Assembly: GCF_964204865.1 (NCBI RefSeq)
Contig: NC_135261.1
Location: 8,680,001-8,744,000 of the forward strand
Reading direction: 5' to 3'
Source of the DNA: Styela clava
Lineage: Eukaryota
DNA: 64,000 nt
Position numbers and translations under genes: made by a program. The notes below the pieces were generated by a model, which did no database searches, had not been told where the DNA came from, and saw only the letters and a program-made list of their open reading frames with translations. Shown piece by piece: positions 92 through 58,223 of the stretch. How positions within the stretch are numbered: the first letter of the stretch is position 1; the number at the start of each line of letters is the position of its first letter.

Positions 92-884
92 CATCATCCT
101 TTGCCAATCTGTAGATACCTTCTCTCTTCTTTGTATAGTGGCCTGTAAAAGTTAGTGGAGGAGAACTAAAATACAAAGTTAGCAGTATATCATAATTACC
201 GTAGTTACATTCAGTCAACTTGTTTAATATTATTGTTATAACTGTATATTAAATATCATGAAATCCAATTTGAAATTTTGCTCATTTGAAGAAATGTTTT
301 ACTTCTCATGCGGTTCTGTAATCATCACACTCGCTCCTGTTCTTGTTTCGGTAAAATTCTGTTGTTTTGCACCACCTACATCCTTTCCCATCACTGCGTC
401 GTTAGTATTTAGAACCTGATTCCAGTCACCAGAAAACTGTCATTCGAAAAATACAATTACAACTAAACTACTTATATCACCAATCTGATAATATTCCTGG
501 CTTAAGGTGAGCTTCTAACGATTACTGATTCAACCAAGTTGTGGCTGGAAAACAACAGGATTCTATTTAAAGTCTGAATGTTTTCCCTAATGATATGTTA
601 AATTTATGTACAGTGATAAAGACATTGTCTTGTGAAAAAACAATGTTTTTTACACATGGAAGAAATATAGGCTTTCATTTATTTTTATCCTGCACTCAAA
701 TGAGTTCAAAACTTTTGAATAACTGGAATTCAGAAGTTTTTATTGACTAGAATAATGTACCAACTTTATCCCAGTCAATATCTTCATTATCTTCTGGAAT
801 CTTGCAGTGTTTAGTCTGAATGAATTCGAAACTTTGAATCAACAACAATAGCAAAGTAAACCTGCCTCTTTTCAGGATGAACAT
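92..884 (-). CDS. Lipocalin-like secreted protein, copy A (class I); coding exons 1-3, remainder beyond the left edge
   Basis: Exons 884-765 (MFILKRGRFTLLLLLIQSFEFIQTKHCKIPEDNEDIDWDK), 436-303 (FSGDWNQVLNTNDAVMGKDVGGAKQQNFTETRTGASVMITEPHE), 165-92 (NSPPLTFTGHYTKKREGIYRLAKDD). All GT-AG, phases 0,2,1. The window starts at the sequence that abuts the exon-4 acceptor in paralogs. Confidence 0.88.
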
Positions 885-1243
885 CTTCTTTCTATCCTAG
901 TTGAATGTATTTCAAAGAAGAACACTGGAATAAGAATTAATTGTTGCCAATTATCATCACAGCAGTTTCTAGTATTTCTGAGAATAATTTGAAGATTTCT
1001 ATTGAATATCATGTGGTTTCATCTACATTCACATGTTTCTGAAACTAATAGAATTGAAAAATTATTCTATTCTGTTGACATTGCAGCTAGCACTCAAGTG
1101 TGACAAACTTAGTGTATATGAGTGTATATAAATACACAAATGAAATTATGCCTGTTAGTGGTTACTTGGTAGCATAAAAACATCAACCTGTATCCCACGC
1201 AATCTGCTTTAAACTGTTTGTGACAAGTCTTTGCTTCTGACAG

Positions 1244-1303
1244 TTTTATAGGCTTCGATAATCAATGTCTTGAAACAATCTTAATCCTAAATACATGACA
1301 TCA
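1244..1303 (-). promoter_or_regulatory. Conserved class I core promoter: TATAAAA plus an upstream CRE/AP-1-like TGA-C-[AG]-TCA site (copy A instance)
   Basis: Minus-strand TATAAAA at the homologous position upstream of A (1244-1250), B (8210-8216), E (20586-20592), F (29745-29751), H (36275-36281), I (41712-41718), J (49914-49920) and K (59123-59129). TGACATCA or TGACGTCA lies about 45 nt further upstream in most copies. Confidence 0.55.
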
Positions 1304-4768: not shown

Positions 4769-7700
4769 CTATGGGTGTCCAACAGTTTCATAAGGATAAA
4801 GTTGAACAATGATTCTTTTCTCAATGAGCTTGTTCCACATCAAACTTATTTGTTGGATTGTAGGATTCAATGTTGGAAATGTTGCCCAGACCACCCATTC
4901 ATCTGAAATGTATTGAACCAGCGATTAATCTGGAGTTTGCGAGTATGAGGAGATGAATCTTAGGCTTCAAAATCATGCTTGTGCTTGCTATGGCTTGGTG
5001 GTTACCTTTATCTATGGTTGTTATTAAGTATGGTTTCAATAACTATGTTGCCAGGGGTGTTCAACATTTTTTGTCGGTTGGCCATATACAGTAACCAAAT
5101 TGAGATATTTAGCTGGATCACACGAAAATTTATTGTTTCCATGTACACAACGTATTGAAATATTCTCACAATGCAAAACTTCATTTATTTAACATTTTAA
5201 CAGGACACTGGACTGGTCATACAATACTGTATGTATTTTGCTCACATGAGCGCTTTTTCAAATAATCTGTTGTATCAGGATTTATACGCTTGATGGGTGA
5301 AAATCTGACTGTTGACAAGGGTCACACTTGGCTTGGCGGGCAGGTTTTGCCCGGCCCTGTTGCACACCCCTAATCTAAACAAAGAACTCATGGATATTTA
5401 TTTAGAGCAGGGCTGTGCAACCTGCAGCCCGTGGCCCACAATGAAAAATTGGATAGGTTAGGGCTAGGGTGACATTACAACAGCAAAGCGATTTACAAAG
5501 CTTTCACTTGCTGAGCAGCGAAAATATCATATTCAGAATTGTAGTTTTAAATACCTTCAAGGCTACAAAATGCATGAATCATGTAGTTCTTCTCATCGCT
5601 TAGTATCAATATATCACCACTAAATAGTGCTTCGTCTGAATAAAAATTGAGCAATGCTCAAATATATATTGATAGAACGAATAGCCCTCCAACAGCAAAA
5701 ATGTCTGCTAAATGTTGTACATAGTTATGTTTCAAATACCATATGTGTTTCCATGAATTTGGGAATGCAAGATTTGAGTGGATATAAGATTGAACGCAAG
5801 ATTTGAGTGGATATCATCCTTTGAATGGACCTGGGAAATTTGTTGATATAAAATAGTAAATGTGATATTATTGTGATTGTCTCAGTCTTATGTACTGAAC
5901 AACAGCTGAAATTGAGTGAAACGATCTATAGGTCCACCTCGTGCCCAAAAATTAGACATATTATACCATTTAGCCTATTAGCCTTTGCAATTCAAGAGTC
6001 CTGCTGCACCAAAAGTTTACGTTGTAAACTGCTTTCTGAGAAGTCTGATTTTGGTCAGACGAATTGTGACAGAAATACATTTGTGTTAGTGTGCAGCAGG
6101 ACTCTTGAATTGCATAGTATGGTATGTTTATTCATGCCAAAGCATCCTTGCATAATATGCATACGGATCCACTAGCGCAACGGCATTGAGGAAGGAATGG
6201 GATTTCTCTACTGATAGGTATGTTCCCCTATTAGAACTGAGAGTTTTGTCAGATCTTACCTATTTTCATAGCTTTCTCATTTATGCTGCCATCTGGTTTC
6301 AATGCTTCTAGAACCAACACAGCCGCTTCTGTACCAAATAATAAAAATCCTCATATCATGAGTTAGTTTTACCCAATTTAATTTCGATTTACCAGTAGTA
6401 ATGAAAATGATGTACCTTCACTCTTTTCTGGTCTATAAACACCAGCTCGTTGTTTGGTCATATGGAGTGATGTCGTTCGTGCAGGAGAACTGAGAAACAA
6501 ATTTTGGGAAAACAAATATCTAAGTGAATATTAATATATGTGTGAAGTTTGTAATTATCATTTGATGAGCTCCCATTCTACTGAAGTTTTATCGAGGTCA
6601 AAAATGTGATATACCGGTAATGTTCACTCACTTTTTGTTCAATTCTGTGATCACATATTGCACTCCTGTGCTTGTTTTAGTGAAATTCTCTAGCTTTCCC
6701 CCCAAGAAATCTGTCGTCATCCCTGCGTCATCTGTAAGTCCATCATACCAGTCATCATGAAGCTGTCAAAAATAGTATTATTAACTCATGAAAAACATTT
6801 GCTTGTCTGATTCGGTTGTCGATAATGTTCAAGGAAAAAAAAGGATGTGAGTTCACATCATCCAAGTAACACTTTGTGGAATTTGCATCATTTTATTGTG
6901 AAGCTTTGCTACTAATATTGTATATGTATGTATATTGAAGTTGCTGTAAAATATTTGCCAGATAGAAAAAAGAAAAAGTACACATGCTAGTGTTATTTAT
7001 CTGATAATATTACCGCAATATGTTTATTTTCAACACATAAACATTGGGTTGATAATTCTAATTCAAACAAATGTTGACAGACAACAACATGCTTCCACTT
7101 GGCGTCTAATTATTTTCTATGTTATATATACCATATATCCTCACATATAAGCCAACCTCCCAAAAGACTTTGAAATAGTAAATTTATAAAAATTCGCATG
7201 TAAGCAGACTCTACAATTCGTATCACGGCATACACACCTATTACATTCAATGATATTCAATTCGAATTAAATATTCGAATATGGCTATTCGCTACCTTCT
7301 AGTATAATTGACTGTGGTTATATTACCGTATACCCTCGCATAGAAGCCAAACCCGCATATAAGCCAACCCCCTAAGAACGAATTTATAAATATTCGCATA
7401 TATAAGCGGACCCTAAAAATTGTAACACTTATTAATAACAGCACACATACTTTTTGACACAGCTAATTTTTATTATATATTCCAATTGTCTATTGTCAGC
7501 GCCAATGTCATTTAGTTCATCGACATCGTTAAGCTAAACGCCACAAGACCGAAAATCTCGTTTTATTTTTCAATTCATTGTTTTTGCTCATAAATTAATA
7601 CTGCCGAATTGAATGATGTTGTCATCAACGTAGCTGGGATAACGATAAAATCCGCGATACTAAACAATATTCAGGTGCTCCCGTATAAATATTCAATCTG

Positions 7701-7877
7701 GAGTTACAAATCAAATTAATTAAAAGTTTGAAACTTAAAGAATGTGCCAACCTTATCCCAGTCAATATCTTCATTATCTTCTGGAATGTTGCATTGTTTA
7801 GCCTGAATGAATTCAAAACTTTGAACCAACATCAGTAGAAAAATGTATCTGCTGTATCTGCTGTTGAAGATGAACAT
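4769..7877 (-). CDS. Lipocalin-like secreted protein, copy B (204 aa, chimeric class I/II, slightly early stop)
   Basis: Exons 7877-7752, 6762-6632 (LHDDWYDGLTDDAGMTTDFLGGKLENFTKT...), 6489-6416, 6328-6260, 5635-5555 (DEALFSGDILILSDEKNYMIHAFCSLE), 4902-4769 (DEWVVWATFPTLNPTIQQISLMWNKLIEKRIIVQLYPYETVGHP*). Frame open throughout, GT-AG junctions. Confidence 0.87.
5052..5372. mobile_element. hAT-like MITE in intron 5 of copy B
   Basis: Ends caggggtgttcaac ... gttgcacaccccta form imperfect TIRs. TSD not clear. Confidence 0.55.
7129..7420. mobile_element. pogo/Tc1-like terminal fragments (two tandem left ends) in intron 1 of copy B
   Basis: taccatatatcctcacatataagccaacc and taccgtataccctcgcatagaagccaaacccgcatataagccaacc resemble TA-CCGTA...TATAAGCC termini of pogo-type elements. 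Confidence 0.5.
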
Positions 7878-9521: not shown

Positions 9522-11177
9522 TCACGATTTAAAACCCATGAAATTCTCTGGATGTTCAACTGCTTCTGCAAGATGAAGTTGTACATTGATTCCTTTTTCC
9601 ATGAGTTCGTTCCACATCATGGTGACTTGAGGAATTGTTGGATTCATAGTTGGAAAGCCAGCCCAGACAACCCATTCATCTGAAATATATTTCAAATTGG
9701 ATTTAATAAATGATGCAGAGGTTAAGTGCTGAGACTAAGATGCTGATATACTGTACTTTTTGTGTTTAATAGGCAATACAACCAGAATCAAATTGAGATA
9801 TTCTAAAATAATTTTGAGTGACAGCGCTTTTTGTTTAACACAAACAGACTTTTATGAAAAGACATTTTACATGCTGTAAGTTCAAACATATTCATGGTGC
9901 GTGTTGAGCTTTATTACACTACATTTGCTGAAACAGCTCAAATACTCCGACATTCACTGTAGTTTTATAATTACCGTAATTTTGAATACCCAACTTTGAT
10001 TTATCATTGTTTGTAAATATTGGCAACACAGTGGTAGAGTGAGGTTTTTCATTTATTGTTAATAGGAACATAGAGGGATTGTGACAATATATTGCAATGT
10101 GATGGCCTGTAATTCCAAGCATTTTTATATATGTGTATACCTGAAAGACTGCAAAATACATTTATCAAGTAATTCTTCTCATCACTTAAAATCAAAACAT
10201 CACCATTGAACATTGCATAATCTAAATATAAAAAATAAAGTTGCGAAGATTTAGGCAATAGCATTTCACATCTATAGGTAATAGTAATTTTACCGATTTT
10301 TGCTGCATCTTCACTTCTTCCACCCTTGGGTGTTAAGGTGTGTGACGTTAGAACAGCCGATTCTATTTGAAAATTGAAATTATACTTTTTTACTGATATA
10401 TTATGCAAATTTTCAATAGAAATTCACTAATTTATATAAAATATATACCATCACTCTTTTTGGGCTCATAGACACCTGCTCTCTTTGTTATCAAATGAAC
10501 TGTCATAGTTTGAGGATGAGAACTAAAATATAAAGGTTGCATTGAATCATAGTTAGCTCCATTTTTAGTCTAATATTTTTTTCTATTTAATATTCATTTA
10601 AAGTTTAACTAGGTCACCATTACTTGAACTTGAATAGGAATTTTGGTCTTTTGAATAAAATATCTAACTTCTGATGTAGTTCTGTGATCATCATGCTCAC
10701 TCCTGTTCTTGTTCTGGTAAAATTCCTGAGTTTTACGCCACCTACATCTTTTCCCATCACTGGATCATTGGTATGTAGAACCTCATACCAGGCATCAGGA
10801 AACTGCCAAAGGAGAGGCATAGTAAATGCACATGAATATAACTGATCTGATATTATTTTTGGGTTATGGCGATCTCAGCTTCTACAGATTATGATGATAA
10901 TACTGTTTCAAACAAATGTTGATTGATTTTACTTGATGTCTGATTTATTTGTGCTCATGCTAAACACAGCGTGTTGTAATATGTGATATTTCATCACACA
11001 TAAAATAAATATGATGGTTTATGTATTTTTAATCTAGAGTTACAAATCATATGAATTCAAAAGTTTTAATCCATTCCCACCTTGTCCCAGTCAATATCTT
11101 CATTATCCTCTTGAATCTTGCATTGTCTGAACCAACATCAATAATACAATAAACTTGCTCGTCATTAAGATGAACAT
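9522..11177 (-). pseudogene. Lipocalin-like copy C, frameshifted in exon 1
   Basis: Exon 1 11177-11081 is 97 nt (23 nt shorter than paralogs) and reads MFILMTSKFIVLLMLVQTMQDSRG*. Exons 10802-10669, 10522-10449, 10362-10294, 10221-10141 and 9679-9522 are intact with normal sizes and splice sites. Confidence 0.82.
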
Positions 11178-11830
11178 TTCTTTTCAACCTGCTCTATGTA
11201 TTTTAATGCTATACTAATGTTGGAATGAAGAATAAATTCAATTTTCCCTATTTACGGAAAAGTAGGTCGAACCTAAAATAATTTGAGAAACATCCTGTCT
11301 TTTGAAACAACTAAAATAGGTGCTCAAGAGCAATTAAAGGATCCTTTCATGTCCTTATAGAAATACGGAAAACCTGTAAGACAGCTGATCATATTGTGAT
11401 TTATGGCCTACGTTCATTCATCAGTTCTAAAGGTATTAAAAAGTGCAAGCATCATATGTTTCTAAGTAATAATAGTCTTCAAAACCATCTTAGACAATGG
11501 TAAATTCTGATAAAACTTTCAGAAGATAATAAAGGATACCTGTTTTTTTTTTGTAAATTTGCTCAATTTTCCCCATATTTTCTCAATGGATGGATTGTTG
11601 GAACTTGGAAGTATTAAGTTGACAAAGAATAGCTTTTATTTCAATTCATATACCACATTCTTTTGCTATCCAGGAAAAACAATATTCAACTCCTAAGATA
11701 CATTCATTTCAAAAGGAGTATCTTCTTACTTTTGTCTTTGTCAAAATATTTTTAAAAGTGTAATGAGAAAATAAGTGGTGTTTTATCATTATGGAAATCG
11801 GAAGTTTTTTTTTTTGGAGTATATACATGC

Positions 11831-11910
11831 CTTATCCCAGTCAATTTCTCCAATGTTCTCTGAAATTTTGCATTGTTCTGCCTGGTTAATCTCGAAGCTC
11901 ATAGCAAACG
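11831..11910 (-). pseudogene. Orphan class II exon-1 remnant
   Basis: Translates FAMSFEINQAEQCKISENIGEIDWDK, then a GC donor (gcatgt). The signal-peptide N-terminus is deleted. Class II upstream sequence follows at about 11930-12230. Confidence 0.7.
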
Positions 11911-12704
11911 AAAAAAAATTTTTCTGATCTGCTAAATCTTAATTTTAAAAACTACATAAAATCTTTATCATAACCCCGAAAACTCTTCAAGTTTGTTTGT
12001 TTGTGCTCCATATATCTATTCGAGGGAGAACAATTAACATCCTTACTTATATGAGCAACAGTGCAGACTGTTTCTTGCAAAACTTGCATTCTGCTCATAT
12101 CTTTGTGCACATTATGTTATATTTTCAATGTGACAGAATGTGATACATATGATTTTTGTTTATTCTGTCTGGCTATGTGCAACATGCCTTGCTTCATGGC
12201 AGAGAGGGCTGAAAAAGTGATCAATATATTTTTAAAAGATATGGTGTTGGTGTACAATGTTCAAACCAGCTAATGGAATTGTTTGAAGTAAAAATCTTTG
12301 GGGAGTATAAGCTGATATATTTATTTTCAAGTTTGTCAATGAAGAAGGAAATGGTACTCCTTTGTGTAAAATGCGGTAACCATTCTAGTTTTCAAACCAG
12401 ATGCATCTTGTAACGAGAAAAGTTCCTGCTGCACAACAATCTTGTTGATTTCGAAGAGATATTTTTTAGAAATCAAAAAGAACACAAGTTATCCATTTTT
12501 TATTTAATAAATTGTTCTACATCCAAAATATGCAAATTTATGTTAAAATCAATATTTTATTAATAAACAATATCTTTGTTATTTGAGAAGTAATGTCATT
12601 TCAGTTGTATGTTTTCAGTAAAACAAAATTCCATTGTATGTATTTGGATAAAGAACGGAATACATGGATACATGAGACACCCAAATCTGAAATCCACTGC
12701 TTTT

Positions 12705-12796
12705 GCATGGTGAAGTTGTACATTGTTTCTTTTTTCCATTAGTTCGTTCCACATCAGGGACTTGATTAATTGTTGGATTCATAGTTGGAAAAAACA
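12705..12796 (-). pseudogene. Orphan exon-6 fragment with J-like 3' flank
   Basis: FFPTMNPTINQV..MWNELMEK..NVQLH with an indel and no acceptor. Flank 12450-12690 closely matches 46700-46945 downstream of copy J. Confidence 0.75.
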
Positions 12797-13506
12797 ATAA
12801 TTTTTGTGAAGATCATTTTTGTTTACACTGAGAATTAGCGGCAAAATACTGTAGCATTTGATAGCATAATCTCTGTCACTGTCACTCTGATTTTTGATGG
12901 TAAAATAAGAAATAAATTCTTGTCATTCCTGATGAAATTACTAATGTAACTCTAATATATTCCAAACAACTCCATCATATGATTAAACTGTATTGATATC
13001 ATAACCATAATCATTTGCTCAGGAATTTATATCGATTGGAGCCTAGAACGCATCAAAGCTTTTCTTGAAGCTTCACGCTTTACTGTCCAAAGACTACTTT
13101 CATTAAAACTTCTCAAAGTCATTATTGAAAATGATATAATTAGTCTGGATGAAGCAATTATTTCTATAGTTGTTCTTAAATGATGCATGGTGATTATAAA
13201 GTATGATGTGGTTTCAAATACTTGTGATTTAATAAGTTTATTTCAAATGTGTGTTTCAATGCAACCCAAAAATTTTTTTTTATCCAAGAATAAGCTTTTT
13301 AAATTTATACACCAATTCCAAGTTATTAGCCACTGTCCAAGCAACGCCTGTTACATTTCTTTTTTCATCAAAAGTTTCTGCAACTTGAAACAGTGCTGTA
13401 TATAACATTTTATTTCTGGTTAATATGTGGAGTAATATAAATCTGTATTATAATGTAGTTGGTGGTTGATTCAGGCTTTTATCTGCAATATCAATCATTT
13501 TCATCA

Positions 13507-16500
13507 TCATAAGTCTTCCATCAACTCTGGATGTACAACTGTTTTAGTAAAGTATAGTTGTACATGTATTCCCTTTTCCGTTAGTTTATTCCTCATTAGG
13601 TTGACTTGATAAATTGTAGGAGTTATGGCTGGAAACATTGCCCAGACAATCCATTCACCTGAGATATGTTAAGAATGCATATTAGGGGGATGAGATTTTG
13701 CAAATCATAACTGAAGTATATCTTTGAAGTAAATAGACTATAAAAGCTTAAAACAGGCAAGGAAATTCATCATTTACAACAGTATATCCTCTATAATTAG
13801 CTCTGTTTGTTCTAGCTTCTTTCAGATATGTTATTGTTCCAAAACAGTTGATGGTTCTCCAATTTGATGTTTGAATTATACATTGATTTTTAAAATAATT
13901 CATTTCAACAAGTGTTCACTAAAGAATACTTCAGTAAAGTCCATTATTCACTAGTCAGAATTGAAATGAAATATGAAAATATATCAATAATCAAGTGAAT
14001 TCAATATGTATGGAATCTATTTTATTTTCATTCACTGTAATTGTATTCGAACATTTTTCATATACAGGATTACCCCCAAAAAACGGAACTTATAAATTTT
14101 CTAGTAACTTTCATAAAAATGGAGTAATTCAATTGATTTTGTTTACACTTGAACCTCATGTTTGTGTATTCTGTTACCTGAAAATTTCTAGGACGTTCTG
14201 TACAAAAGTTATGTTCTCTCTAGAAAAACCCCTTAGGCATAGAAGATAGACTTGTAAATTGTCAATCCCCAACTCAGTTTTGTGCTAAATTTCACTTTTT
14301 CCTGTCTGCGTATGTCAATGGCAAAAATATTGATTGCCTGGGTACGACATCTCCGAAAAACGTTACACTCAATATAGTGTACAGCATGGAAAAATGGAAA
14401 GCCATTTCCAAACATTGTGTAGCTGGTTCATTGACTTGATGGCAAAAATGAAGTAGTGAATATTGAACATGTAGCGGTGCTGAGATAGTGCAGGGCATCA
14501 TTTGGGCAAAGTAGAGCGATTGATGGAGTTGATTATTGGTTTTAGCAAGACCCTCGGTTGCCCTCACCTCATCAAATCTTTGACTGTATAAGAAAGCGAT
14601 TTCAGAAAGGGTTGATCAGCAGGAAGTTTGGTGTCTGGGGAATATGATGGACAGTGTGTATCATAACATTCCCCAAACAATTGGTGGACTCAAAACTGCA
14701 ATTGCAACAAAAACTACAAAAATCCCCATAGCAGAGTGTGTGTGTAAGTGATTTGTCGACTTTGCGCAACATGTGCAAATATTCTAAATTGAACATAACT
14801 TTTGTGAAAGCGTCCTAAATTCCTGAAACTTCCAGGTACGATCATCCACAAACAGGAATTGAAGCATGAATAAAATCTAATGAATTTTTTCATTTCTGTT
14901 ATAGTTATTAACAAATTTACAGGTATGTGTTTTGTTTTTTGGGCACCCCGTACCAGTTTAATTTTAAGGTTTTATAACATAGACAATAATGTACCTGAAA
15001 GACTGCAGACTGCACGAATCAAATAGTTCTCTTCGTCACTTAGAACCAACATGTCATTATTGAATATGGCATCATCTGAATATAAAATATTCAATCTGTT
15101 GTTACTTAGAATAAGCAATTGAAATGTTCAATATCAACTTGATAATGGTTCTAAGTTCCTATAAATGCTGACAATTGCAATGCTAACTAACCTTCACACT
15201 CAATAGAAATATTACATTTTTGAGGCCTACTGACCTCCTATTTGGAGGCTTCACATAGCCACTGATCAGTTACAAATATTCAACATTTTAACTATCAGAC
15301 CTGATGAGATGCTGTGGACTGTGGTTCATTATATGATCAAGTCATTTCATTAGCATTTATTTTTTTTTGGATAGATATGCAAGTTCTCTGTCATTTTATT
15401 GAAAAAGGTTGGAAAAGGTTATTGAAAGGTTGGATCCACTTGAATGTGCCTTACCTACTTTTACTGCATCTTTATTCAAACTTCCATCTGCTAATAGGGC
15501 ATTTATAGACAGAGCCTCTGACTCTATACCAGAATGAGAATCAGCTTTTGGGTAAAGTGTTAAGTAACTTTTCTAAATGTTGATTATATGAAATTCATAC
15601 CTTGGCTCTTATTCGCTCCACAAACACCTGATCTTAGTTTGATACAATAAGCCTCCATTGTTTTGGGGGGAGAACTGAAAAATGAGATGTACCGTAAATG
15701 ATACAATAGAATATTATATTTAATTAACCAACATATTTGAGTAGATTCTGTAACTATGTATAATACAAATTTTCCCTGAAATAAGGCACATTCCCCAAAC
15801 ATAACATTCAGTTTCTCTGTTTATGTTCGTAACAGCGAGCAATAAGTCAACAATGATGATCAATTGAAACTTGTAGTACAGAATTTGTACAGCCGCTCCG
15901 ACGCTTGCTTCGTTCAGACAGATATTCAAGCATGGTGGTGAACATTCCCTCTTTTTCGCAGTTCAGCGTGTTATTTGTCAGTTTTCAGTTTGGTTTCAAA
16001 AATTAGTTGTGAATCAAATAACTTAATTGTATTTCGATGAGTTTCACTTTAGTTGCTATAATCAAAAATTAGTTCAGAAAATGGTGCCTTATTGCCATAA
16101 AAGCCTAAAAAAAATGTGGTTGAATATTTTTGCTTATTAAAATGCTGGTTCTGAACATATCAACCAGTTCATAAGCGCCAACTCTCCAAAGCGCTCACAA
16201 AATAAACATCAGAAATTTTGCAATAGCAAAGTACAGAAAAAAGTTTTTTGGGGTCAAGGGTTGGTCAAATATTCATAGACCTTGAAAACATCACTTTTTC
16301 AAACTTTAACTATGCAATAAACTAATATTCACTCACCTTTCGTAGAAACTTGTGATTAAAAATTTACTTCCAATCTTTGTTTTTGTGATATTCCAGATTT
16401 TTGAACCTATAACATCTGTTGTCGACAATGCGTATGTAGTCCTAGATACCAATCATTCGCAAACTGTCATTATGAAAATTAAATAAGATATATAAATCTT

Positions 16501-16934
16501 TTCAGTATTCACTTCAGTTTCCATCTATTATTGTGGGAAACTATACAAAAATTTAGCTTCACTAAAAAAATTGTAAAAATTTCATTTACCGTAACTAAAA
16601 CAGTGAATTTGACGAATTTCCTTCTGATTTTTATTTGAATTAAATTCTACATTATTCACTACTCTTCAAGATAAATGCAAGTTCTTCAATGTTTCGTTAT
16701 AAATGTAAACTCGTGAAAATAATATTTAAGAAAACTGAGAGAAGAGGCAAATGTTTTTTTTAATATCTGAAATACTTGAATTCAAGAAATTCATTGAAAG
16801 TAATTACCGGTACATACCTCATCCAAGTCGATGTCTTCATTGTTCTCTGGAATTATACATTCCTTTGCCTGGTTAATCTTGATGCTTATAACAAGCATCA
16901 AAAGTGATATACACATGTTTTTTAAGGTCTGCAT
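13507..16934 (-). pseudogene. Lipocalin-like copy D (class II), frameshifted in exon 2
   Basis: Exons 16934-16818 (MQTLKNMCISLLMLVISIKINQAKECIIPENNEDIDLDE), 16463-16337 (127 nt; about 7 nt missing after FANDWYLGLH, giving an early TAG), 15674-15601, 15523-15455, 15075-14995, 13658-13507 (GEWIVWAMFPAITPTIYQVNLMRNKLTEKGIHVQLYFTKTVVHPELMEDL*). Confidence 0.8.
14065..14950 (+). mobile_element. Decayed Tc1/mariner element with transposase C-terminal remnant, in intron 5 of copy D
   Basis: TA-flanked imperfect TIRs (caggattacccccaaaaaac / gttttttgggcaccccg). Frameshifted remnant GLISRK...WG.MMDSVYHNIPQTIGGLKTAI...IPIAECV at about 14610-14780. Confidence 0.72.
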
Positions 16935-18209: not shown

Positions 18210-20269
18210 TCATTCAAAACCCATGAAATTCTCCGGATGTTTAACTGATTCTAAAAGATGAAGTTGTACATTGATTCCCTTTTCCATGAGTTTGTTCCAC
18301 ATCAAGGTGAGTTGGTTGATTGTTGGATTCATAGTTGGGAAAACTACCCTGACAACCCATTCATCTGAAATATATTTGGACAACTAATAAACAGTGTGAA
18401 GGAGATTTTCTGGCATGACTTTTATTGGGAAATACGCTAGTAATATTACTACAATAAATTCATAGAATATATCAATTTATCATACCTTGCCCTTCTCTTT
18501 TCCAAGCATTCCATTTTTCAGGGCATATACGGTATATTTATAACGAATAAGCCGAATAGATCACAGTAACAGTGGGCCGCCTTTATTTTGAGATTGATTC
18601 ATTCAAGTCATGTTTGTTTGTAAACAATCTCCTCATGGCAAGTTTTGACATTTGTGTGAAGCAGTGAAGGATAGTAACAATATATTGCAATTAGGTATAG
18701 TTGCAGTATTAGTATAGTATTTATATATACCTGAATTAATGCAGAATACATTTATTTGGTAATTCTTCTCATCACTTAATATCAAGACATCGCTGTTGAG
18801 CAGTGCATCATCTGAATATCAAAAAATGAAGATATAATATAGCATTCTAACTTGAAAAGGTCCAAAAATTTTACCGAATTTTATTGTATCTTCACTTGTT
18901 CTACCTTCCGGTGTTAAAGATTGTGAGGCGATCATAGCTGGTTCTGTTTGAAAATTCAAATAACTTTTATTATTCAGCAGGAATGTTATACATATTTTAC
19001 TCCAAGGATATTACTAAATATACCATCACTCTTTTCCAATCTGTAGATACCTGCTTTCTTCTTGTTATAGTGGACTGGAAAAGTTCGTGGAGGTGAACTA
19101 AAATATTAAGTTAGCATTATATCATGAATAGTTACAGTCAATTTATTAATATAAGACTGGATTGTCCAACCTTTTTGGCCAAATGGCCACATTCAGTTTA
19201 CGAATGATTGTGCTGGCCATTTGACATGGTTGTTATGTTCTAGTTTTCACTACACCGACTACAGATTAATGAATAAACAACCAAAACCTTCGCAAAAATT
19301 ATGAAAACAATGAAAATACGAAGATACTGGTAAATCAAAAGTTTTTGCCACATATAGATATTTTAATGTCAAGTATGACACTGCTTTTATCCAATAAGTT
19401 CGTCAATATTCGGTGCGATGGAAGATGTAGCAATGCGGGGGCAATGTAACAATCGGAAACCTTCGTCGGGCCACAGGTTGGACGACCCTGATATTGAGAC
19501 CTAATTTGACTGATTCAGAATTGTGTAAACTGTCTCTCATGTGAAAAATATCCTACCCCTTATGTAGTTCTGTGACCGTTTTGACCATTCCTGTGCTTGT
19601 TTTGGTGAAGTTCTGTAGTTTTGCACCAAATACACTTTTATCCATTACCGGGTCATCAGTGTGGAGAACCAGATACCAATCATCAGGAAACTGTCAATAG
19701 AGAAGTACATGAACATAACTGATCTCTTTATATTCTGTGATTGATGTATCTTCTGAAGATAGGGCGATAATTTCAATTCCAACAAAGAAAACAAATACTG
19801 ATTGATGCAATATATATATGCTTATGCTAATCACACAGATTTGTATAATACTAATGTTTTGTTGCAGAGAGATATATCATATTTTGAGGCACACTATATA
19901 TCCCCCTTTTTCTGCAAAAATATATTGTGCTTCTTATAAGCCAGTGTGCCGAATGTATGGTTCGGGTAGTACTTTATGCTATATTGTCTATACTCAAAAC
20001 CAGTACCAATTGTGTCTTATTATAGCATGTGTGAGCTTATGTATGGACGAAAACCCAAACTAAATAATTATTGTTTATTCACCTTAATAAGGTCTGTAAA
20101 ATATGGAAATGTATTTTTGGTCGGCATTTACAGGAAAGAATGTACTCACATTATTCCAGTCAATGTCTTCATCATCCTCTGGAATGTTACATTGTTTAGC
20201 CTGAATGAATTCAAAACTTCGAACAAACATCAATAGCAAAATATACCTGTTGTTTTCCATGATGAGCAT
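18210..20269 (-). CDS. Lipocalin-like secreted protein, copy E (class I, 210 aa)
   Basis: Exons 20269-20150, 19690-19557 (FPDDWYLVLHTDDPVMDKSVFGAKLQNFTKT...), 19097-19024, 18943-18875, 18811-18731, 18364-18210. Open frame, GT-AG. Confidence 0.9.
19157..19490. mobile_element. hAT-like MITE in intron 2 of copy E
   Basis: TIRs ctggattgtccaacct / aggttggacgaccctg and a degenerate atataaga TSD. Absent from the homologous intron of F, I and K. Confidence 0.72.
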
Positions 20270-21435: not shown

Positions 21436-21502
21436 CTGAAAGGCTGCAGAATGTATGAATCAAATAGTTTTCTTCATCACTTAGAACCAACATGTCATTA
21501 AT
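21436..21502 (-). pseudogene. Orphan D-like exon-5 fragment
   Basis: NDMLVLSDEENYLIHTFCSLS followed by a GT donor. The first codons and the acceptor are missing. Confidence 0.72.
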
Positions 21503-21619
21503 ATTCATACCTATAAACTGTAACTCCAAGTAGACTAGCTTCGCTCCATCCATTTTGATAATAAATCTTTCATAAAAGATATTGGTCATAAATTTTCAGG
21601 ACAATATTAACAAGTCAGT

Positions 21620-25202: not shown

Positions 25203-28200
25203 TCATCTATCAAAACCCATGAAATTCTCTGGATGTTCAACTGACTCGTAAAGGTGAAGTTGTACATTGATTTCGCTTTCCATGAGTTTGTTCCACATCA
25301 GAGTCAGTTGCTGAATTGTTGGATTCATAGATGGGAAAGCCACCCAGACAACCCATTCATCTGAAATACATTGTACAAGTTACAATGAACAGTGCAGAAG
25401 GAAAATTTTACATGCCATTTTGTGGTAAATATTCTTGCAATATTACTATAGAAAAATGATAGAATTGCCAATCATGACAGATTCAAAATAATGTTGTGTA
25501 CTTCAGTACAATACACAAGACAGAGAAGTACGGGATGACGATGTACAATAGTCGGTTCATGGCACATCCAGGTTTCGATGTGAAAATATGGGAGTAGGGT
25601 ATGAATCGTCAATTGAAATCTTTTTACAATAAATATTAGTACTTTTTTCTCACTTTGAAGCCGACATAAAACAAACAAACATAAAACAAATTCAACCTTG
25701 TTGTAAGCCGACATAAAACAAATTCAACCCTGTTGTGATGTGAGAAACACGCAACACTGGAATATATCAAACTGTGTTTCGCTGTTAATGACACACAATT
25801 TTAGCTCTTCGAATACCTCACAGTAGTGCGCATTCCATTTTTGGAGCATTGTTTCAATTCCAACATTCTACCCCTAAAAGATACTGGCTGCGCCCCCGAT
25901 TGCAGTTGGTTTAAAACAATCCTCATTATTATTGCTTTTACTGTAGTTTTGTTGCATAAGACTACGATATGTACATAGAACAATAGTATCATACTGGTTT
26001 TGAGTGAGACAATAAAGCCTAAATCATTACTTGATCCATACATTAGGTGCACAGGCCCATAAGTCACGCAATCGATTCTTGAGAAATAGGGATCTTAATT
26101 GTGCCTCATGATCAATAAATTACAGCAGCCTATATATTTATATACCTGAATAACTGCAGAATGCATAAATCATATAATTCTCCTCATCACTTGAAATCAA
26201 AAGATCACCATTTAACAGAGCATCATCTGAACATCAAGAAATAAAAATATAGAATAAAGATATCAAATAACATTTTCCCTTAAACAACTTTTTATACCAA
26301 TTTTACCTATTTTCGCTGCATCTTCACTTCTTCCACCCTCTGGAGTTAAAGTATGTGATGCTTCGAGAGCTAGTTCTGTTTTTTAAAAAAAAAATTTCTA
26401 ACTAGAATATTATGCCAAATTTGAATAAAATGTTAATTAAAAATATATACCATCATTCTGTGCCAATCTGTAGATACCTGCTTTCTTCTCTGTATAGTGA
26501 ACTGCATAAGTTTGTGGAGGAAAACTGAAATATGAAGTTAACATTATCTCATAATTAGTTACAGTTTGTCAATTTATTAATATAAGACCTAATTTGACTA
26601 TGGAGCATTGTGGTAAGCATTTCTCATTTGAAAAATATCCTACTTCTTGTGTAGTTCTGTGACAATCATGCTCATTCCTGTGCTTGTTTTAGTGAAATTG
26701 TGTAGTTTTGCACCAAATATATCTTTATCCATTACTGGGTCAAATGTGTGGAGAACTCCGTACCAGGCTCCAGAAAACTGTAATTTGAGAAGCATAGTAA
26801 ATGTACATAAATACAGGGTGTCCAAAAAGTTCCGCCCGATTTCATAGAATTACCAATCGCAAAATTGAATAAATTTGGTTGCATGATAAATGGGGACTAC
26901 AACATTTAACATCTATAACAGTGGTCGGCATCCTTTTTTCGGTGACGGACCAGTAAAGCCTGACCCAAATTTTGGCGGACCACCTTATATAGACTTACCA
27001 AGCTTATGTGATAAATTATATGTATTAGGAAAAATAGGTTGATATTGAATTCAAAAATAAAAGTGATGCTATTCAAGTAACATGTTTCTTACGTTTGGCC
27101 TACTATGATTTTGTAGTTTTCAATTTTGAAAACCCGACCTCACATAAAGGTAATAATGCCTCTTAAGCTTGTTTTGCTATGCCGGTGGTATTAATTTAGG
27201 AGTAGGGAAAAGTGGGGAAGGTTGGAATACTTTTTTTTTCTTTCACAACTTTTGAGCCTTTTATTTTGCAGAATCATTTCACTTTGCGCGACTAATGCAG
27301 AGAGGTAAATGTAGTTTGTGTTCAGCAACTAAGAAATCCTCTTGCGACACACATCTTACCACGATATTGCTTTAAAAAACGTTTGTCAAGTGTCCCATTG
27401 TGCCCCACGAGTGGGGCACATTCGGACAGGACCTGGGGCACAGTGGGCATGAAGTATGCCCTTGAAAATAAGCAATTAATCGGCATTACCTTCTTAAGAA
27501 CAGGGAGACTTCAAATTTGAAGATCCAGGATTTTTAAAATCGATGTTCAACCAAAATATTTTAGATATTTTTACACAAAATTCCGCAAACAAATTATTTC
27601 ATCTTATTTTCCAATTCCAAATCTGGAAATATTTTTGATTCTCGAATATATTTCATATCGGGTCATGGGTCGAAAGATACCATGATATTAAACAAAATAT
27701 AACGCATCTCTAGGCCTCTAAGCACTCATTGTATCAAACACTGTTGAATTGTGCTCAGTATAGGGCATGTCCCACTGAACCCCGGTTCATTGTTTAGGAA
27801 ACAAATATTTTCGAACAATCACACAGCGAAATTAGGAAGGCAAATCTACTCGCCAAAGTTATGAATATTTTACAGTGGAGTAAAGCTGAAAAATATCAGA
27901 CGGTGGTTTGTCATGTTGGAAAGGCTAAAGTAGAAAAAAGAAAAAACTGGAATGGTGAAATTTTAGTTTCCATCCCCTAAAATCAATTTCACCTCATAGC
28001 TTGCGTCGCTTTGCACGGCCGTTGTCCGTTTGCGGGGACGTTGTAACTCACCTATAGGCGGGGATCCCATCGATCTGGAACCCAAAATAAGGACGACTGG
28101 AAAATTTTCTGCATTGTGAGCAGAAATAGCTGGCTTCCCTATGGCCTCCAGGGTAATGTCACAATTACAGACGTCACAGTGTGCGAAGCACTCACCCTTC

Positions 28201-33584: not shown

Positions 33585-33895
33585 TGACTTCATGACCTCA
33601 CCAGATACGAGTCATTCTCAACTCACATACAACAATATGCTTTGCAATTTTTACTGGATATTAAGTGCAATCAGAGCAATCAGAGTTGCTCAAACTCATT
33701 TTCATTAATAGCTGTGATTTGCAGTTTAGTGGAATGCGGAAATCCTCAGACACATTTGTTGCGAAAAAGAATGAATTTGCTTAGTCTCTATATTTGCTTC
33801 GACAATGAAATTTCACACCTTAAGTAGATACATACCTTATCCCAGTCAACGTCTTCATTGTTTTCTTGAAATATACATTCTTTTGCCTGGTTATA
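33585..33895 (-). pseudogene. Decayed G-like fragment (partial exons 1 and 2 with intron 1)
   Basis: About 33893-33836 reads NQAKECIFQENNEDVDWDK with a GT donor. The intron matches G intron 1. An internally deleted exon-2 remnant lies near 33590-33622. Confidence 0.72.
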
Positions 33896-34157
33896 ACGAA
33901 CAGCAAAAGTGCAAACAGCAAAATATTTTAGAATTATTTTATCAATAGCTATGTGCAACTCCAAAACAATGATTCTTTGTGCTATAGCTATAATGATCAA
34001 ATTGCAAAGTGTCCACATTCGACATACTTACCTCTCTCGATCAAACTGCAGCCTTTCATTCTGTACATATATTTGTGTACATGATGATGCTTTGTTTTCC
34101 AAACAAAGCGGGATAAAATGCGTATTTTTTTTGTTTATGCTGTCTGACAATATAGAA

Positions 34158-35181: not shown

Positions 35182-35246
35182 GTATAAGACCTAATGTGAC
35201 TGATGCAGAATTGTGTAAACTGTCTCTCATGTGAAAAATATCCTAC

Positions 35247-35955
35247 CCCTTATGTAGTTCTGTGACCGTTTTGACCATTCCTGTGCTTGTTTTGATGAAG
35301 TTCTGTAGTTTTGCACCAAATACACTTTTATCCATTACCGGGTCATCAGTGTGGAGAACCAGATACCAATCATTAGGAAACTGTCAATAGAGAAGTACAT
35401 GAACATAACTGATCTCTTTATATTCTGTGATTGATGTATCTTCTGAAGATAGGGCGATAATTTCAATTCCAACAAAGAAAACAAATACTGATTGATGCAA
35501 TATATATATGCTTATGCTAATCACACAGATTTGTATAATACTGATGTTTTGTTGCAGAGAGATATATCATATTTTGAGGCACACTACAAATCCCCCTTTT
35601 TCTGCAAAAATATATTGTGCTTCTTATGAGCCAGTGTGCCGAATGTATGGTTCGGGTAGTACTTTATGCTATATTGTCTATACTCAAAACCAGTACCAAT
35701 TGTGTCTTATTATAGCATGTATGAGCTTATGTATGGACGAAAACCCAAACTAAATAATTATTGTTTATTCACCTTAAGGTCTGTAAAATATGGTATTGTA
35801 TTTTCGTTTGCATTTACAAGGAAGAATGTTCTCACATTATTCCAGTCAATATCTTCATTATCTTCTGGAATGTTACATTGTTTAGCCTGAATAAATTCAA
35901 AACTTTGAACAAACATCATCAGCAAAATATACCTGCTGTTTTTCATGATGAACAT
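35247..35955 (-). pseudogene. Lipocalin-like copy H, E-like, exons 1-2 only
   Basis: Exons 35955-35836 and 35380-35247 are near-identical to copy E, including intron 1. Exons 3-6 are absent beyond a transposon junction near 35150. The NFT sequon is changed to NFI. Confidence 0.82.
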
Positions 35956-43793: not shown

Positions 43794-43963
43794 ACTCGCT
43801 CATTGGTTGCCTCTTTCCTTACCATGCCAGACCATTCGCACGTAGAGATTAATGGGTTAAATACCTTCACACCCATCTACTCGCTCATTGGTTGCCTCTT
43901 TCCTTACCATGCCAGACCATTCGCACGTAGAGATTAATGGGTTAAATACCTTCACACCCATCT
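43794..43963. repeat. Perfect 85-bp tandem duplication
   Basis: actcgctcattggttgcc...cacacccatct occurs twice, starting at 43794 and 43879. Confidence 0.92.
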
Positions 43964-46964: not shown

Positions 46965-48633
46965 TCATTCAAAACGCTTGAAAATCTCTGGATGTTCCAC
47001 TGCTTCTGCAAGGTGAAGTTGTACATTGATTCCCTTTTCCATGAGTTTGTTCCACATCAGGGTGAGTTGCTTAATTGTTGGATTCATGGTTGGAAAAACC
47101 ACCCAGACAACCCATTCATCTGAAACATATTTCAAATTCGTTTTACGGAATGTTTCATAAGGGAAATGCGAAACATTCAATTCAATATTTGGTTAAAGAT
47201 TAGGTAATGAAGGCAACCAACATATACCGGTATATATATATATATATATGTGTCTGAGTGGTGCCCGAGCAGTAAAAAGCAACATTTTCTGCATCACATA
47301 TAATATTACTTCTTAAGTTTGTATTTCTTGCTACAGTAGTTTTCTATGCAGTTTTTTCACTGCAGAGTGATGAAGTAGGGTTTCACAAAATTATTCAAAT
47401 AATAAGTGTAGCTTAGAATGAGCATGCACTAAGATAATATATTGTAATGCAATATTATATAAGTCGAAATATGGCTAAGTACTGGTATGTCGCTACCTGA
47501 AGGACTGCAGAATGCGTATATTATGTAATTCTTCTCATCACTTAAAATCAAAATATCAGCATTGAACAGTGCAAGATCTAAATATCAATGAATAAAAGGT
47601 ATCGGATGAAGTTTAGGGAAATAGCATTTTACATGAATAAGTTAACACTCTTTACCTAATTTCATTGCATCCTCACTTGTTCCACCGTCTGGTGTTAAAG
47701 TTTGTGATGCTAGAGCAGCTTGTTCTGTTTGAAAATTCAAATAACTCTTTTTTACTGCACTGTTTTGCCCATTTTGATTTGCAATTGAAAAATTAATAAA
47801 ACAAATATACCACTACTCTTTGCCAATTTATAAACACCTGTTCCTTTCTTCCTCCAAAGGGCTGCGTAAGTTTGTGGAGAAGAACTAAAATATTAAGTTA
47901 TCAGCATATCATAATTACCGTAGTTATATATAGTAATTTATTATTGACATATTTTATTTAATTATTGATATATTAATTTACTCTTAAGTCAACTATTGTA
48001 CAATTTCGTTCATGAACTTTAATGTAAATTATTGTACATTCGAAAAAATCACTGACTTCTTGTGTAGTTCTGTGACCACTGCTCGCACTTCTGTGCTTGT
48101 TTTGGTAAAATTCCACAGCTTTGTACCATATACGTTATTTGTCATTACTGGATCATTGGTGTGTAGAACCTCATACCAGTCGTCGGTGACCTGACAGAAG
48201 AAAAACATAATAAATGTGCATGAATGAATGACTGATTCAATAATATTGCTGGATTATGGTGATCTTTTGAAGATTGCCATGATAATTCTGATTCAAACAA
48301 ATTTTACTTGACAACAACAGGATTCTACTCGATGGCTAAATGTTTTCCTGAATTAATTGTTCAATATATACATATAAGGATAAATATACGGTCTCATAGA
48401 ATACTAAAATTTCCTTACAAATGAAATTTATATGGAATATTTTGTGATTTTAATTTTAGAGTTACAAATGTGATGAATTCAGAAGTTTTAAATGTCTAGA
48501 AGTATGTACTGACCTGATCCCAGTCAATATCTTCATTATCCTCTGGAATGTTACATTGTTTAGTCTGAATGAATTCAAAACTTTGAACCAACATCAATAG
48601 CAAAATGTACCTGCCCCTATTTAAGATAAACAT
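46965..48633 (-). CDS. Lipocalin-like secreted protein, copy J (210 aa)
   Basis: Exons 48633-48514, 48190-48057 (VTDDWYEVLHTNDPVMTNNVYGTKLWNFT...), 47884-47811, 47724-47656, 47577-47497, 47119-46965. Open frame, GT-AG. Confidence 0.9.
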
Positions 48634-55000: not shown

Positions 55001-57490
55001 TGCACAAATCACTGGGCTTGTGCTCATTTGATATAGTAATAAACCTGCTGAAAGTATTCATAAAAGTAGCAAATTTTTTGTGTCTTCGTGCTTATTTGAG
55101 ATGTGATCTTTTGAACTTTCAGAAATTGGCCCTTAATGTTTTTAGTCATCAAACTTCATTAGCTTTCAGTTGTCACCCAAAATCTATTAGCGTACATGCC
55201 AGACCAAAAAGTTGACAATTTTGCAGAGAATTTCCAAGTTATGTGAAATCACTTTGTCATAGCTGTTTTCTTACGGTATTGTCATAAAGTATATAAATTT
55301 TTTTCAGAGATTAAATCTCTTTGTTTTTGAGTGAGTGCGTGTGACTTCCCTTTGAGTGAATTTTAACTAAAAAACTGTTTGAGTTTAGGTTTATAGATAC
55401 CACTCATCTATACCGTTGAAAAATAGCTAGTACTTGTATTTAGGAACAACGGGGAGTAAGATTAATGATCACAGCTAGATATGCTTCTAGTATGGATTTA
55501 AAGATTCTTATTTGAAGTATCACGATAATTGAAAGTGTTGCATCAGATGAGTTGACAATAATTTACAAATACATCAGAAATCTTTGCACTTTGATGGCTA
55601 CTTACAATATTACCCCTGAGTGACTTCAACTTACTATTTTGTGACTTTTGAATTTTGTCAACCTTAATGAAAACATTAATCATGAAAAGAACGAGAGACT
55701 GGATAGATTTTTTGTTGCACGTTCTACCTTTAATAAATTAATTTAGGAACATTTTCAAGGCTTGTGACATATATGCAAAATTTTTTTCTCCGTGTTGTTG
55801 CTGCTCTATGTTAATAAACAGTAGTTGATTTATAAATTTACTTATTTTGATGACAATCTGAAATGAATTCTTCTCACATCCACAATTTTTATTGATGAAT
55901 TAACAGGCAAATATATAGGGATAAAATGGACATAACATTGCTGATTATATAAGTTGATGTAGAAGATGAATACATGATACACATAATAATAACTGCAGTT
56001 TTGTACTGATTTTCATCTATTAAAAACCCATGAAATTCTCTGGATGTTCAACTGATTCTGAAAGATGAAGTTGTACATTGATTCCTTTTTCCATGAGTTT
56101 GTTCCACATCAGGGTGAGTTGCTGAATTGTTGGATTCATAGATGGGAAAACCACCCAGACAACCCATTCATCTGAAATACATTGGTACAGTTTAGAATTG
56201 AGACTGCAGTGGGAAAATTTTACATGTCATTTTTTGGTAAAAATGCTGGCAACATTACTATAATACATTTATAGACTATATCATCAGTAGCCATAAAAGA
56301 TTGAAAACCACTGATTTATTATAATTGAGGAAGATTCAAAATAATGTGGTGTGAAATTATATCACAGAAAGATATTTCTTCTTCGAGTGACAAAAAATTA
56401 ATAACTTATCAGCAAAAAATATGAAGGTGCGATTGTTGATTGTAATCCAGCAAGAGTACTCGTATGTGTATACTTCTCATACTGTTTATTTGCCTCAAAA
56501 ATGTAACAGCATCTGGATAATAATACTCAGAAAGACATATTCAAGATCTTACTTTTCCGGACACAGTTGTGCGATATGTACCCTTCACATGCGTAACAAC
56601 AGTTTAGGACTGCTGCATTTTACTAGGACAATAGACATGAAATAAATATACAATGAAAACTTAGGTGTGATACACAAGACAGAAAGGTACATAATGACAG
56701 CGTACAAAAGTCTGTTAATTGCACATCCATGTCCCAGGTTCCGATGTTAATAAATGAGTGTAGGGTATGAATCGTCCATTGATTTTTTTTACAATTAATA
56801 TTACAAATCACATGAAAATTTGTTTCAGACATGTACCAATAAGAGAAGGTGTATCGTCTTTTCTCACTTTGAAGCGATCATAAAATAAATTCAACACCGG
56901 TGTGAGATGATATTCAAGCCACAATGCAATTTATTAAACGACATTTCGCTGTTAACGACACACAATATTTATTTCTTCAAATGCCTTACGATGTTGCGCA
57001 TTGCACAATTGAAGCAATGTTTTAATTCCAGCATATCACATCTCAAGAGATACTAGGTGCATTCTTGATCACAGTTGCTCTAGTTCAGAACAATGCTCAG
57101 ATACTAGGTGCAATCTTGATCACAGTTGCTCTAGTTCAGAACAATGCTCATTACTATTGCTCCTACCATAGTTTTGTTGCATAAGATGGCGATACAGTAA
57201 TATTTATATACCTGCATAGCTGCAGAATGCATAAATTATGTAATTCTCCTCATCACTTGAAATCAGAAGATCACCACTGAACAGAGCATCATCTGGATAT
57301 CAAGAAATAAAAATATAGAATGAAGATATCAAATTACATTCTACTTTTAATAACTTTCAATACCATTTTTACCTATTTTCGCTGCATCTTCACTTCTTCT
57401 ACCCTCTGGAGTTAAAGATTGTGATGCTTGGAACGATGGTTCTGTTTGAAAATTCGAATAAATCTCATTTTTCTTATTAGAATATTATTA
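52058..57490 (+). repeat. Segmental duplicate of about 59636-64000 (K versus L downstream regions and 3' exons)
   Basis: Near-identical colinear sequence and duplicated ORF-track entries, e.g. 53833/60746 and 54862/61819. Confidence 0.9.
52386..53057. mobile_element. piggyBac-like MITE, 672 bp
   Basis: TTAA TSD on both sides and TIRs ccctttccatgcg / cgcacggaaaggg. Empty TTAA site at 59961 in the duplicated block. Confidence 0.9.
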
Positions 57491-58223
57491 AAATAAAAGT
57501 TAGCTCAAAATATATACCATCATCCTTTGCCAATCTGTAGATACCTGCTTCCTTTTTTGTATAGTGGACTGTAAAAGTTTGTGAAGGAGAACTAAAATAT
57601 AAAGTTAACATTATATTGTAATTAGTTACAGTTAGTCAATTGATTAATATTAGACTTAATTTGACTTAGCAATATGTTAACTATCCCTCATGTAAAAAAT
57701 ATCCTACTTCTTGTGTAGTTCTGTGACCATCTTTTGCACTCCTGTGCTTGTTTTGGTAAAATTGTGTAGTTTTGCACCAAATACATCTTTATCCATTACT
57801 GGGTCAAAAGTATGTAGAACTTCGTACCAGGCATTAGGAAACTGTCAGTGGATGAGGCATAATGAATGTACATGAACATAACTGTTTTGATTATATTCTT
57901 CAATATAGTGAGTTTTCAAAGATGGGCGATAATTTTAATTTAAACAAAGAAAACAATTCTCATTGATAAACGAATTTATATATGCTTATGCTAAACACAT
58001 TGATTTATATAATACTAATGTTTTGTTACAGAGAGATAATACCATGTTTTTATTCTACTTCACAAAAGTCTTCAAAAGTTATGAATTTCAAGAATTTACT
58101 CACATTATCCCAATCAATATCTTCGTTATCTTCTGGAATGTTGCATTGTTTAGTCTGAATGAATTCAAAACTTTGAACCAACATCAATAGCAAAATGTAC
58201 CTGCCACTATTTAAGATAAACAT
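56020..58223 (-). CDS. Lipocalin-like secreted protein, copy K (class I, 209 aa)
   Basis: Exons 58223-58104, 57841-57708, 57591-57518, 57441-57373, 57292-57212, 56171-56020 (ends ...HPENFMGF*). Open frame, GT-AG. Confidence 0.9.

Follow-up and report, generated by a model that had tools for sequence, protein, structure and literature searches.

What drives the copies of a gene array apart at a few short protein segments? This question is raised by a 64,000-nucleotide (nt) stretch of the Styela clava genome (NC_135261.1, positions 8,680,001 to 8,744,000; called the window here), in which exon mapping and six-frame searches delineated a head-to-tail array of 12 copies (A-L) of a six-exon gene on the minus strand, as are all features located below. 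Eight of the copies are intact (B, E, F, G, I, J and K within the window, and L across its right edge), and four (A, C, D and H) are broken. A preliminary description had proposed that the pocket-forming strands are hypervariable between the copies while the scaffold is conserved, and had attributed this to diversifying selection on ligand specificity. Our analysis, which combines computed selection ratios, a predicted fold and a putative cavity, points to a birth-and-death cluster in which selection after duplication likely drives cavity residues apart toward different small molecules; the earlier reading of ligand-driven diversification is thereby partly supported, and the "recognition repertoire" that it named is something we would infer from the sequences.

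The gene model comprises six coding exons of 120, 134, 74, 69, 81 and about 155 nt, with intron phases 0,2,1,1,1. The 69-nt exon 4 was revealed by database proteins, and the joints behind these phases were confirmed in spliced contigs. Across runs from three studies, contigs that skip the introns exactly were found for three copies: copy G (30951..32687; intact and the most divergent) shows four splice joints in runs X7 and X11 plus a 972-nt spliced contig, copy F (25203..29428; intact, with an intron 1 of 2531 nt) shows three splice joints in X8, one of them also in X10, and in copy K intron 2 is skipped in X2 by a contig joining 57591 to 57708. In a 771-nt contig from X7 exon 6 begins at base 526, matching the six-exon model. 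Judged by these spliced contigs, genes of the array are expressed; the contigs come from runs of which none is on record as RNA, and they give neither tissue nor level.

The array proteins are predicted to be secreted lipocalins of an outlier type, with an eight-stranded barrel and a helix. For the protein of copy I (P0005; 38701..40822, intact), AlphaFold with a 46-sequence alignment returned a model with a predicted local distance difference test score of 88.6, with eight strands and a helix at the C-terminus, plus two additional helices (107-117 and 127-138). On this model DSSP places the strands at 44-50, 60-70, 74-83, 89-99, 102-105, 141-145, 151-156 and 162-168 and the helix at 175-187; the helical insertion may serve as a lid. 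The model also has a hydrophobic N-terminal helix (3-18), and a hydrophobic N-terminus is found in all intact copies. The top Foldseek matches are lipocalins without exception, the best being ApoD (E 8e-7; Z 14.7, root-mean-square deviation 3.0 over 149 residues), and by sequence the family profile reaches DigA16, crustacyanin, bilin-binding protein (BBP) and ApoD at E values of 8e-9 to 1e-6. In the profile alignment with BBP and ApoD the N-terminal Cys and the D-W...W-Y and TD..NY motifs line up. W45-Y46, which aligns with the W-W/W-Y of BBP and ApoD, is invariant in 15 close copies, and the Trp is present in 29 of 33 distant relatives; the Gly preceding this strand-A Trp is mostly replaced. 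As Flower is said to have set out in 1996, an outlier lipocalin keeps at least the first conserved region, with a Trp at the start of strand A.

The other lipocalin hallmarks are degenerate or missing. The second conserved region (T-D-Y-x-x-Y) appears as a degenerate S-D-E-x-N-Y in the array and as TDY.NY in many distant relatives, and the third-region Arg after strand H is missing, the Arg of BBP and ApoD aligning with Pro where the array reads W-x-x-F-P. Proteins of the ApoD clade carry two disulfides, from the N-terminus to strand G and from strand B to the C-terminus. The array clade keeps C27 and C156 and lacks the second disulfide, with Gly at position 62 and no C-terminal Cys; both of these cysteines are present in the copies on contigs C19 and C5 and in distant relatives. 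Because the third-region Arg and the second disulfide are missing, we file the array proteins as outlier lipocalins and not as ApoD. None of 10 close proteins matches the Pfam lipocalin family PF00061 at E up to 10, single exons likewise find no lipocalin match in Pfam, and of 35 wider relatives eight match weakly, one of them above the gathering cut-off. The latter is a 544-residue protein (P0035) with several matched stretches, possibly a multi-domain lipocalin. A phmmer search of the Protein Data Bank with one protein returned only E values above 0.2; the ESM Atlas named lipocalin-like folds at 0.89-0.92, which we treat as a lead only.

Which residues would face the cavity was judged from the wider family. 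Among 33 distant relatives, large hydrophobic residues alternate in strands B-E at positions 63, 65, 68, 75, 77, 79, 91, 93, 95, 103 and 105, and positions 64, 66, 67, 76, 80, 90, 92, 94 and 104 are polar. We assigned the hydrophobic alternating positions inward and oriented strands A and F-G through the BBP alignment and what we take to be the BBP pocket positions, giving 20 inward strand positions in exons 2-5 and 29 outward ones. In copy K (56020..58223, intact; exons 58223-58104, 57841-57708, 57591-57518, 57441-57373, 57292-57212 and 56171-56020), codons 75-79 (VQKMV, 57725..57739) lie in predicted strand C, with 75, 77 and 79 putatively inward and 76 and 78 outward; codons 89-95 (QTFTVHY, 57561..57581) lie in predicted strand D, with 91, 93 and 95 inward; and codon 105 (57531..57533), in predicted strand E, would also point inward. 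Codon 95 holds 9 different residues across 15 copies. Charged residues are swapped into the cavity positions (D/R/W/F at 95, K/Y/M at 77, R/E/L at 105), and these swaps suggest changed ligand chemistry. Compared with copy b1, database protein P0019 shows only 4 differences in the mature protein, one of these being Trp for Arg at site 95, the cavity site with the greatest variability.

Selection was measured on the mature protein as the ratio of nonsynonymous to synonymous rates (omega), using GY94/F3x4 codon models with branch lengths scaled from model M0. A 10-copy set comprised nine array copies and the intact duplicate of C, and a 15-copy set added five paralogs; broken copies, two copies protein-identical to b1, copy b4 (near-identical to b3), and three C5 copies and one C19 copy with an uncertain exon 1 were left out, and two C19 copies entered a 17-copy run only. 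The proposed contrast between strands and scaffold proved to exceed chance: under one shared synonymous rate, omega was 0.77 at inward and 0.33 at outward positions in 10 copies (likelihood-ratio test, p=5e-6), and 0.96 versus 0.44 in 15 copies (p=5e-7). A per-site rank test of inward versus outward positions was borderline (p=0.06 and 0.05). In strands C and D, which are the segments that had been singled out as pocket strands, most of the excess falls on the putatively inward positions, with omega of 1.83-1.95 at positions 75, 77, 79, 91, 93 and 95 versus 0.84 at 76, 78, 89, 90, 92 and 94.

The signal exceeds neutrality in recently duplicated copies. Inward omega is 2.34 in the young clade I/F/L/K and 2.24 in a set of five copies that two other clusters contribute (one-sided p<0.01 versus 1 in both cases); jointly the two clades give 2.28 (p=0.0004), with 0.74 at outward positions and 0.46 in the rest of the protein. 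This estimate was 2.10 (p=0.003) when multi-nucleotide mutations were modelled, 2.30 (p=0.001) when orientation followed a mechanical hydrophobicity rule, and 1.78 (p=0.02) without sites 95 and 105. For the I/F/L/K and n2-n4 pairs, intron divergence (0.07-0.18) is about equal to synonymous divergence (0.09-0.19), and therefore the silent clock is not depressed.

Tests with sites free to vary gave a compatible picture in the larger set. With 15 copies, the M1a/M2a (p=2e-6) and M8a/M8 (p=5e-6) comparisons were significant, placing 3-4% of sites at omega 3.4-4.1, and they stayed so when each exon was given its own tree (p=0.018 and 0.012) or multi-nucleotide mutations were modelled (p=0.018 and 0.011); exons 2-5 alone behaved alike (p=0.002-0.005 with multi-nucleotide mutations), and the 17-copy run gave p=1e-4 for M8a/M8. 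The selected sites were 47, 66, 76, 77, 95 and 105, of which 105, the second strongest, was absent from the preliminary description. In the 10-copy set (M0 omega 0.33) the same comparisons gave p=0.005 and 0.003, and none of 22 single-tree null simulations reached the observed statistic; for 15 copies none of 11 did, the per-exon-tree set consisting of one replicate only.

The motifs behind the original claim were all recovered on the minus strand in the copies to which they had been assigned, ten of ten at the start of exon 3 and eight of eight at the end of exon 2 (from ASVMI at 334 to QTFTVHY at 57581), although three of the exon-3 motifs belong to the broken copies A, C and D and seven to unbroken ones. 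Many replacements had been noted between close pairs: copies I and F differ at 8 of 20 inward positions versus 12 of 100 others, with 5 codons differing synonymously only (Fisher p=0.005), and inward enrichment reaches p<0.05 in seven of 11 pairs, but not in I-K, F-K, F-L and b1-n3. Exons were likewise expected to outpace introns, and at the 12 codons originally listed the proportion of nonsynonymous differences is 0.10-0.31, versus 0.07-0.18 in introns 2-4 of the I/F/L/K pairs. Since this set, with omega of 1.24-1.32 overall and 2.15-2.36 in young copies, had been chosen for its variability, we do not count it as evidence.

A number of observations weigh against selection on the cavity. The young-clade estimate drops to 1.66 (p=0.051) when sites 95 and 105 are removed and multi-nucleotide mutations are modelled as well, and in seven old copies inward omega is 0.54, significantly below 1, and 0.34 with multi-nucleotide mutations, so that diversifying selection holds for the young clades whereas purifying selection prevails on old branches. 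The variation is confined to the B-E sheet, inward positions of strands F-H being conserved (omega 0.44-0.47). The array by itself loses its signal when recombination is allowed for through per-exon trees (10 copies, p=0.58 for M1a/M2a and 0.30 for M8a/M8). The orientation of residues comes from alternation and homology rather than coordinates, the inward set was defined after the first site-model run, which brings some circularity, and sites 66 and 76 score as high as the cavity sites yet would face outward. The models were run in our own code with empirical-Bayes posteriors rather than in codeml, and the many tests carry no correction for multiplicity.

Part of this could be explained if constraint were merely relaxed in a dosage-amplified or partly redundant family, with a tolerant cavity, drifting young duplicates and omega inflated by multi-nucleotide mutations and conversion. 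We regard this as rather unlikely. In its favor, the array-only signal is gone under multi-nucleotide models (10 copies, p=0.98 and 0.43), inward omega over all branches (0.77-0.96) does not exceed 1, young copies are relaxed overall (omega 0.46 versus 0.29 in the rest of the protein), four of the 12 copies are broken, near-identical copies occur in another cluster, and the pairwise homoplasy index (PHI) detects recombination on all sites (p=0.004-0.035), though none on third positions. However, relaxation would not account for the two independent young clades in which omega exceeds 1 even when multi-nucleotide mutations are modelled, nor for inward sites that outpace solvent-facing ones, a reversal of the rule usual for buried residues; and recombination simulated with per-exon trees failed to reproduce the 10-copy statistic (0 of 22 replicates).

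Sites 66 and 76 bring up a second alternative, in which a protein-contact surface on the outer face of strands B-C (66, 76, 92) is selected by a receptor, a pathogen protein or a self/non-self partner, and the cavity changes are secondary. The 15-copy models assign these two sites posteriors of 0.84-0.99, and the two are predicted cross-strand neighbors on that face; SAL1 lipocalins are selected at both pheromone-binding and putative receptor-binding residues (PMC3128046). Yet the outward class as a whole is under purifying selection (0.33-0.74) and the strongest sites, 95 and 105, are assigned inward, which makes this explanation improbable. That the proteins are lipocalin-fold enzymes widening their substrate range, as in millipede hydroxynitrile lyase or violaxanthin de-epoxidase (fold matches at Z 10.1 and 14.1), is very improbable, since binding proteins are equally good matches, no set of catalytic residues was found, and of the H50, D53, D140 and D146 that are nearly invariant among close copies all vary in the wider family except D146, part of a structural motif, and mostly D53.

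The proposed selection on cavity residues would act in an array that also exchanges sequence between its copies, which are about 50-90% identical to each other and under 30% identical to the wider family. Copy J (46965..48633, intact) differs from I, K and L by 3-6% in the 5' flank and exon 1 and by 16-37% in exons 2-5 and introns 2-4, its first exon and flank being of the I/K/L type; the exon 6 that it has in common with copy M is 3% different, versus 20-35% elsewhere. Silent sites tell the same for exon 6 of J and M (4 of 27 different versus a synonymous proportion of 0.49, p=0.0015) and for exon 1 of B and L (3 of 19 versus 0.58, p=0.0015) and of J and L (p=0.015), the J-K and J-I comparisons of exon 1 being not significant. 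Exons 1 and 6 of some copies have been made alike by gene conversion, silent sites included. The scaffold motifs that had been described as nearly constant (IPEDNEDIDW, NFT, SDE-x-NY and NPTI-x-Q-x-x-LMWNKL) are present, but because two of the four sit in the converted exons 1 and 6, their constancy is partly homogenisation. Conversion fails to explain the contrast within exon 2, between NFT and codons 75-79.

Tandem duplication, loss and exon exchange have shaped the array, and we suggest that soon after duplication selection would change the putative cavity residues (47, 77, 91, 93, 95, 105 and their neighbors) toward different small-molecule ligands. Purifying selection would then hold the new pocket state, making selection episodic, with omega of about 2 on young and about 0.5 on old branches. 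Converting exon 1 together with the promoter, and exon 6, may keep expression, signal peptide and C-terminal helix alike, and the same conversion would reshuffle exon 1 with its promoter and exon 6 against the pocket exons. Our best guess for the role is extracellular scavenging or carrying of lipophilic or amphipathic compounds that come from diet or microbes. Closely related paralogs with 6-8 differing cavity residues offer a natural, testable series for change of pocket specificity in lipocalins, with a possible bearing on chemical defense or tolerance in an invasive fouling species.

The remaining copies illustrate gain and decay along the array. At the left edge, copy A (92..884) has exons 1-3, its exons 4-5 lying left of the window, and is likely a pseudogene because no exon 6 occurs before the next copy, M. 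Copy B (4769..7877) has an open frame, with an exon 2 one codon short, a short C-terminus and an exon 1 converted to the L/J type. Copy C (9522..11177) is frameshifted by a 23-nt deletion in exon 1, and upstream of it lies an exon-1 relic without signal peptide (11831..11950). A frameshifted exon-6 relic is at 12692..12818. Copy D (13507..16934) is a pseudogene with a 7-nt deletion in exon 2 and exon 4 missing. Copy E (18210..20269) is intact; an isolated exon-5 relic (21436..21517) and an exon-1 relic (33839..33955) were found by exon mapping, and copy H (35247..35955) consists of exons 1-2 only, as a partial duplicate of E. For copy L, exons 4-6 (62921..63926; 63926-63858, 63789-63709 and 63078-62921) are in the window and exons 1-3 lie just beyond its right edge.

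An inverted duplicate of the block holding C and D (9400-17200) lies about 7 Mb away (G000:C16:15.810-15.824 Mb, L009-L010) at 86-95% identity; there the C copy (Cb, at G000:C16:15.82 Mb) is intact and a stop codon breaks the D copy. High-copy interspersed repeats at 22900-23900, 41200-41700 and 52400-53050, with dense contig cover from several runs, are probably short mobile elements; the window holds no open reading frame of transposase length (eight of at least 120 residues, the longest 166). Short near-perfect tandem duplications occur at 34292-34518 (76 nt, three times), 43794-43963 (85 nt, twice), 44491-44664 (87 nt, twice) and 57048-57150 (51 nt, twice).

Beyond the window, related clusters lie on contigs C16 (three places), C19, C9 and C5; many other contigs carry matches that are more distant and in part single-exon. 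Distant matches in single open frames of about 200-270 residues, apparently intronless and several of them clustered, are found on C1, C2, C4, C5, C6, C8 and C14. Identical proteins are encoded at G000:C16:15772985, 15780012 and 16083735, either a very recent amplification or an assembly duplicate. A profile search returned 44 clusters under 50% mutual identity, one of which (P0050) is a bacterial Ig-like false hit. Of the representatives, 30 were looked up: 27 are labelled Styela clava and "uncharacterized", and the other three carry no species name. The family may reach other species, because for two representatives not labelled S. clava this genome holds nothing closely similar. P0010 does carry the S. 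clava label but also lacks a close copy here (best exon-2 identity 65%), pointing to either presence/absence variation or a gap in the assembly. Exons 2-4 of K are matched by database protein P0002, which in exon 5 is nearer to F; this apparent K/F mosaic and P0010 may reflect haplotype differences in array content.

A large family of secreted binding proteins in a close relative of the vertebrates thus seems to have been missed by annotation, since most of the representatives looked up are "uncharacterized" and the S. clava genome paper (PMC7540406) nowhere uses "lipocalin" in its main text. Our search of the literature on lipocalins in Styela, ascidians, tunicates, hemocytes and tunic, which did not cover most subscription journals, found no report of this family. 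More speculatively, and with considerable doubt on our part, the genome could hold a hidden repertoire of many dozens of helical-lid lipocalins invisible to Pfam, made to differ from one individual to the next by exon exchange and by which genes are present, and serving germline-encoded recognition of small molecules, that is, scavenging or sensing of microbial, dietary or conspecific compounds. A family review gives a single lipocalin in Ciona and places the expansion in vertebrates (PMC8420045), and amphioxus has six lipocalins (PMC3184775); such a repertoire, if real, would upset the view that tunicates had just one lipocalin before the family expanded in vertebrates.

Among known systems, the best fold matches are ApoD, Lazarillo, BBP and crustacyanin (Z 14-14.7), to which the array proteins are 10-22% identical. 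They differ from the ApoD group by about 30 extra residues at 107-138, between strands E and F, that include two predicted helices, by the lack of the Arg after strand H, by a strand-B Cys that 33 of 33 distant relatives have and that is Gly in 15 of 15 close copies, and by their multi-copy array where the ApoD group has one or a few genes. The Ambp/ApoM/Ptgds/Rbp4-like gene of amphioxus likewise has six coding exons with phases 0,2,1,1,1 (PMC3184775); only the phases match, and intron 4 of the array genes falls in the inserted helix. Similar in pattern are the mammalian SAL1 and MUP clusters, where lipocalin genes stand in tandem along with pseudogenes, gene conversion occurs and ligand-binding residues are under positive selection (PMC3128046; PMC2533699); the S. 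clava array belongs to an independent lineage and its copies are far more diverse. Tick salivary lipocalins, whose introns are treated in PMC3695081, are also a lineage-specific expansion of divergent secreted proteins, scavenging different small molecules (PMC5622192), whereas S. clava is a free-living filter feeder with no host to manipulate. The pattern is therefore known from SAL1/MUP and from ticks, and what is new here is the lineage, the size of the family, the insertion and the invisibility to annotation.

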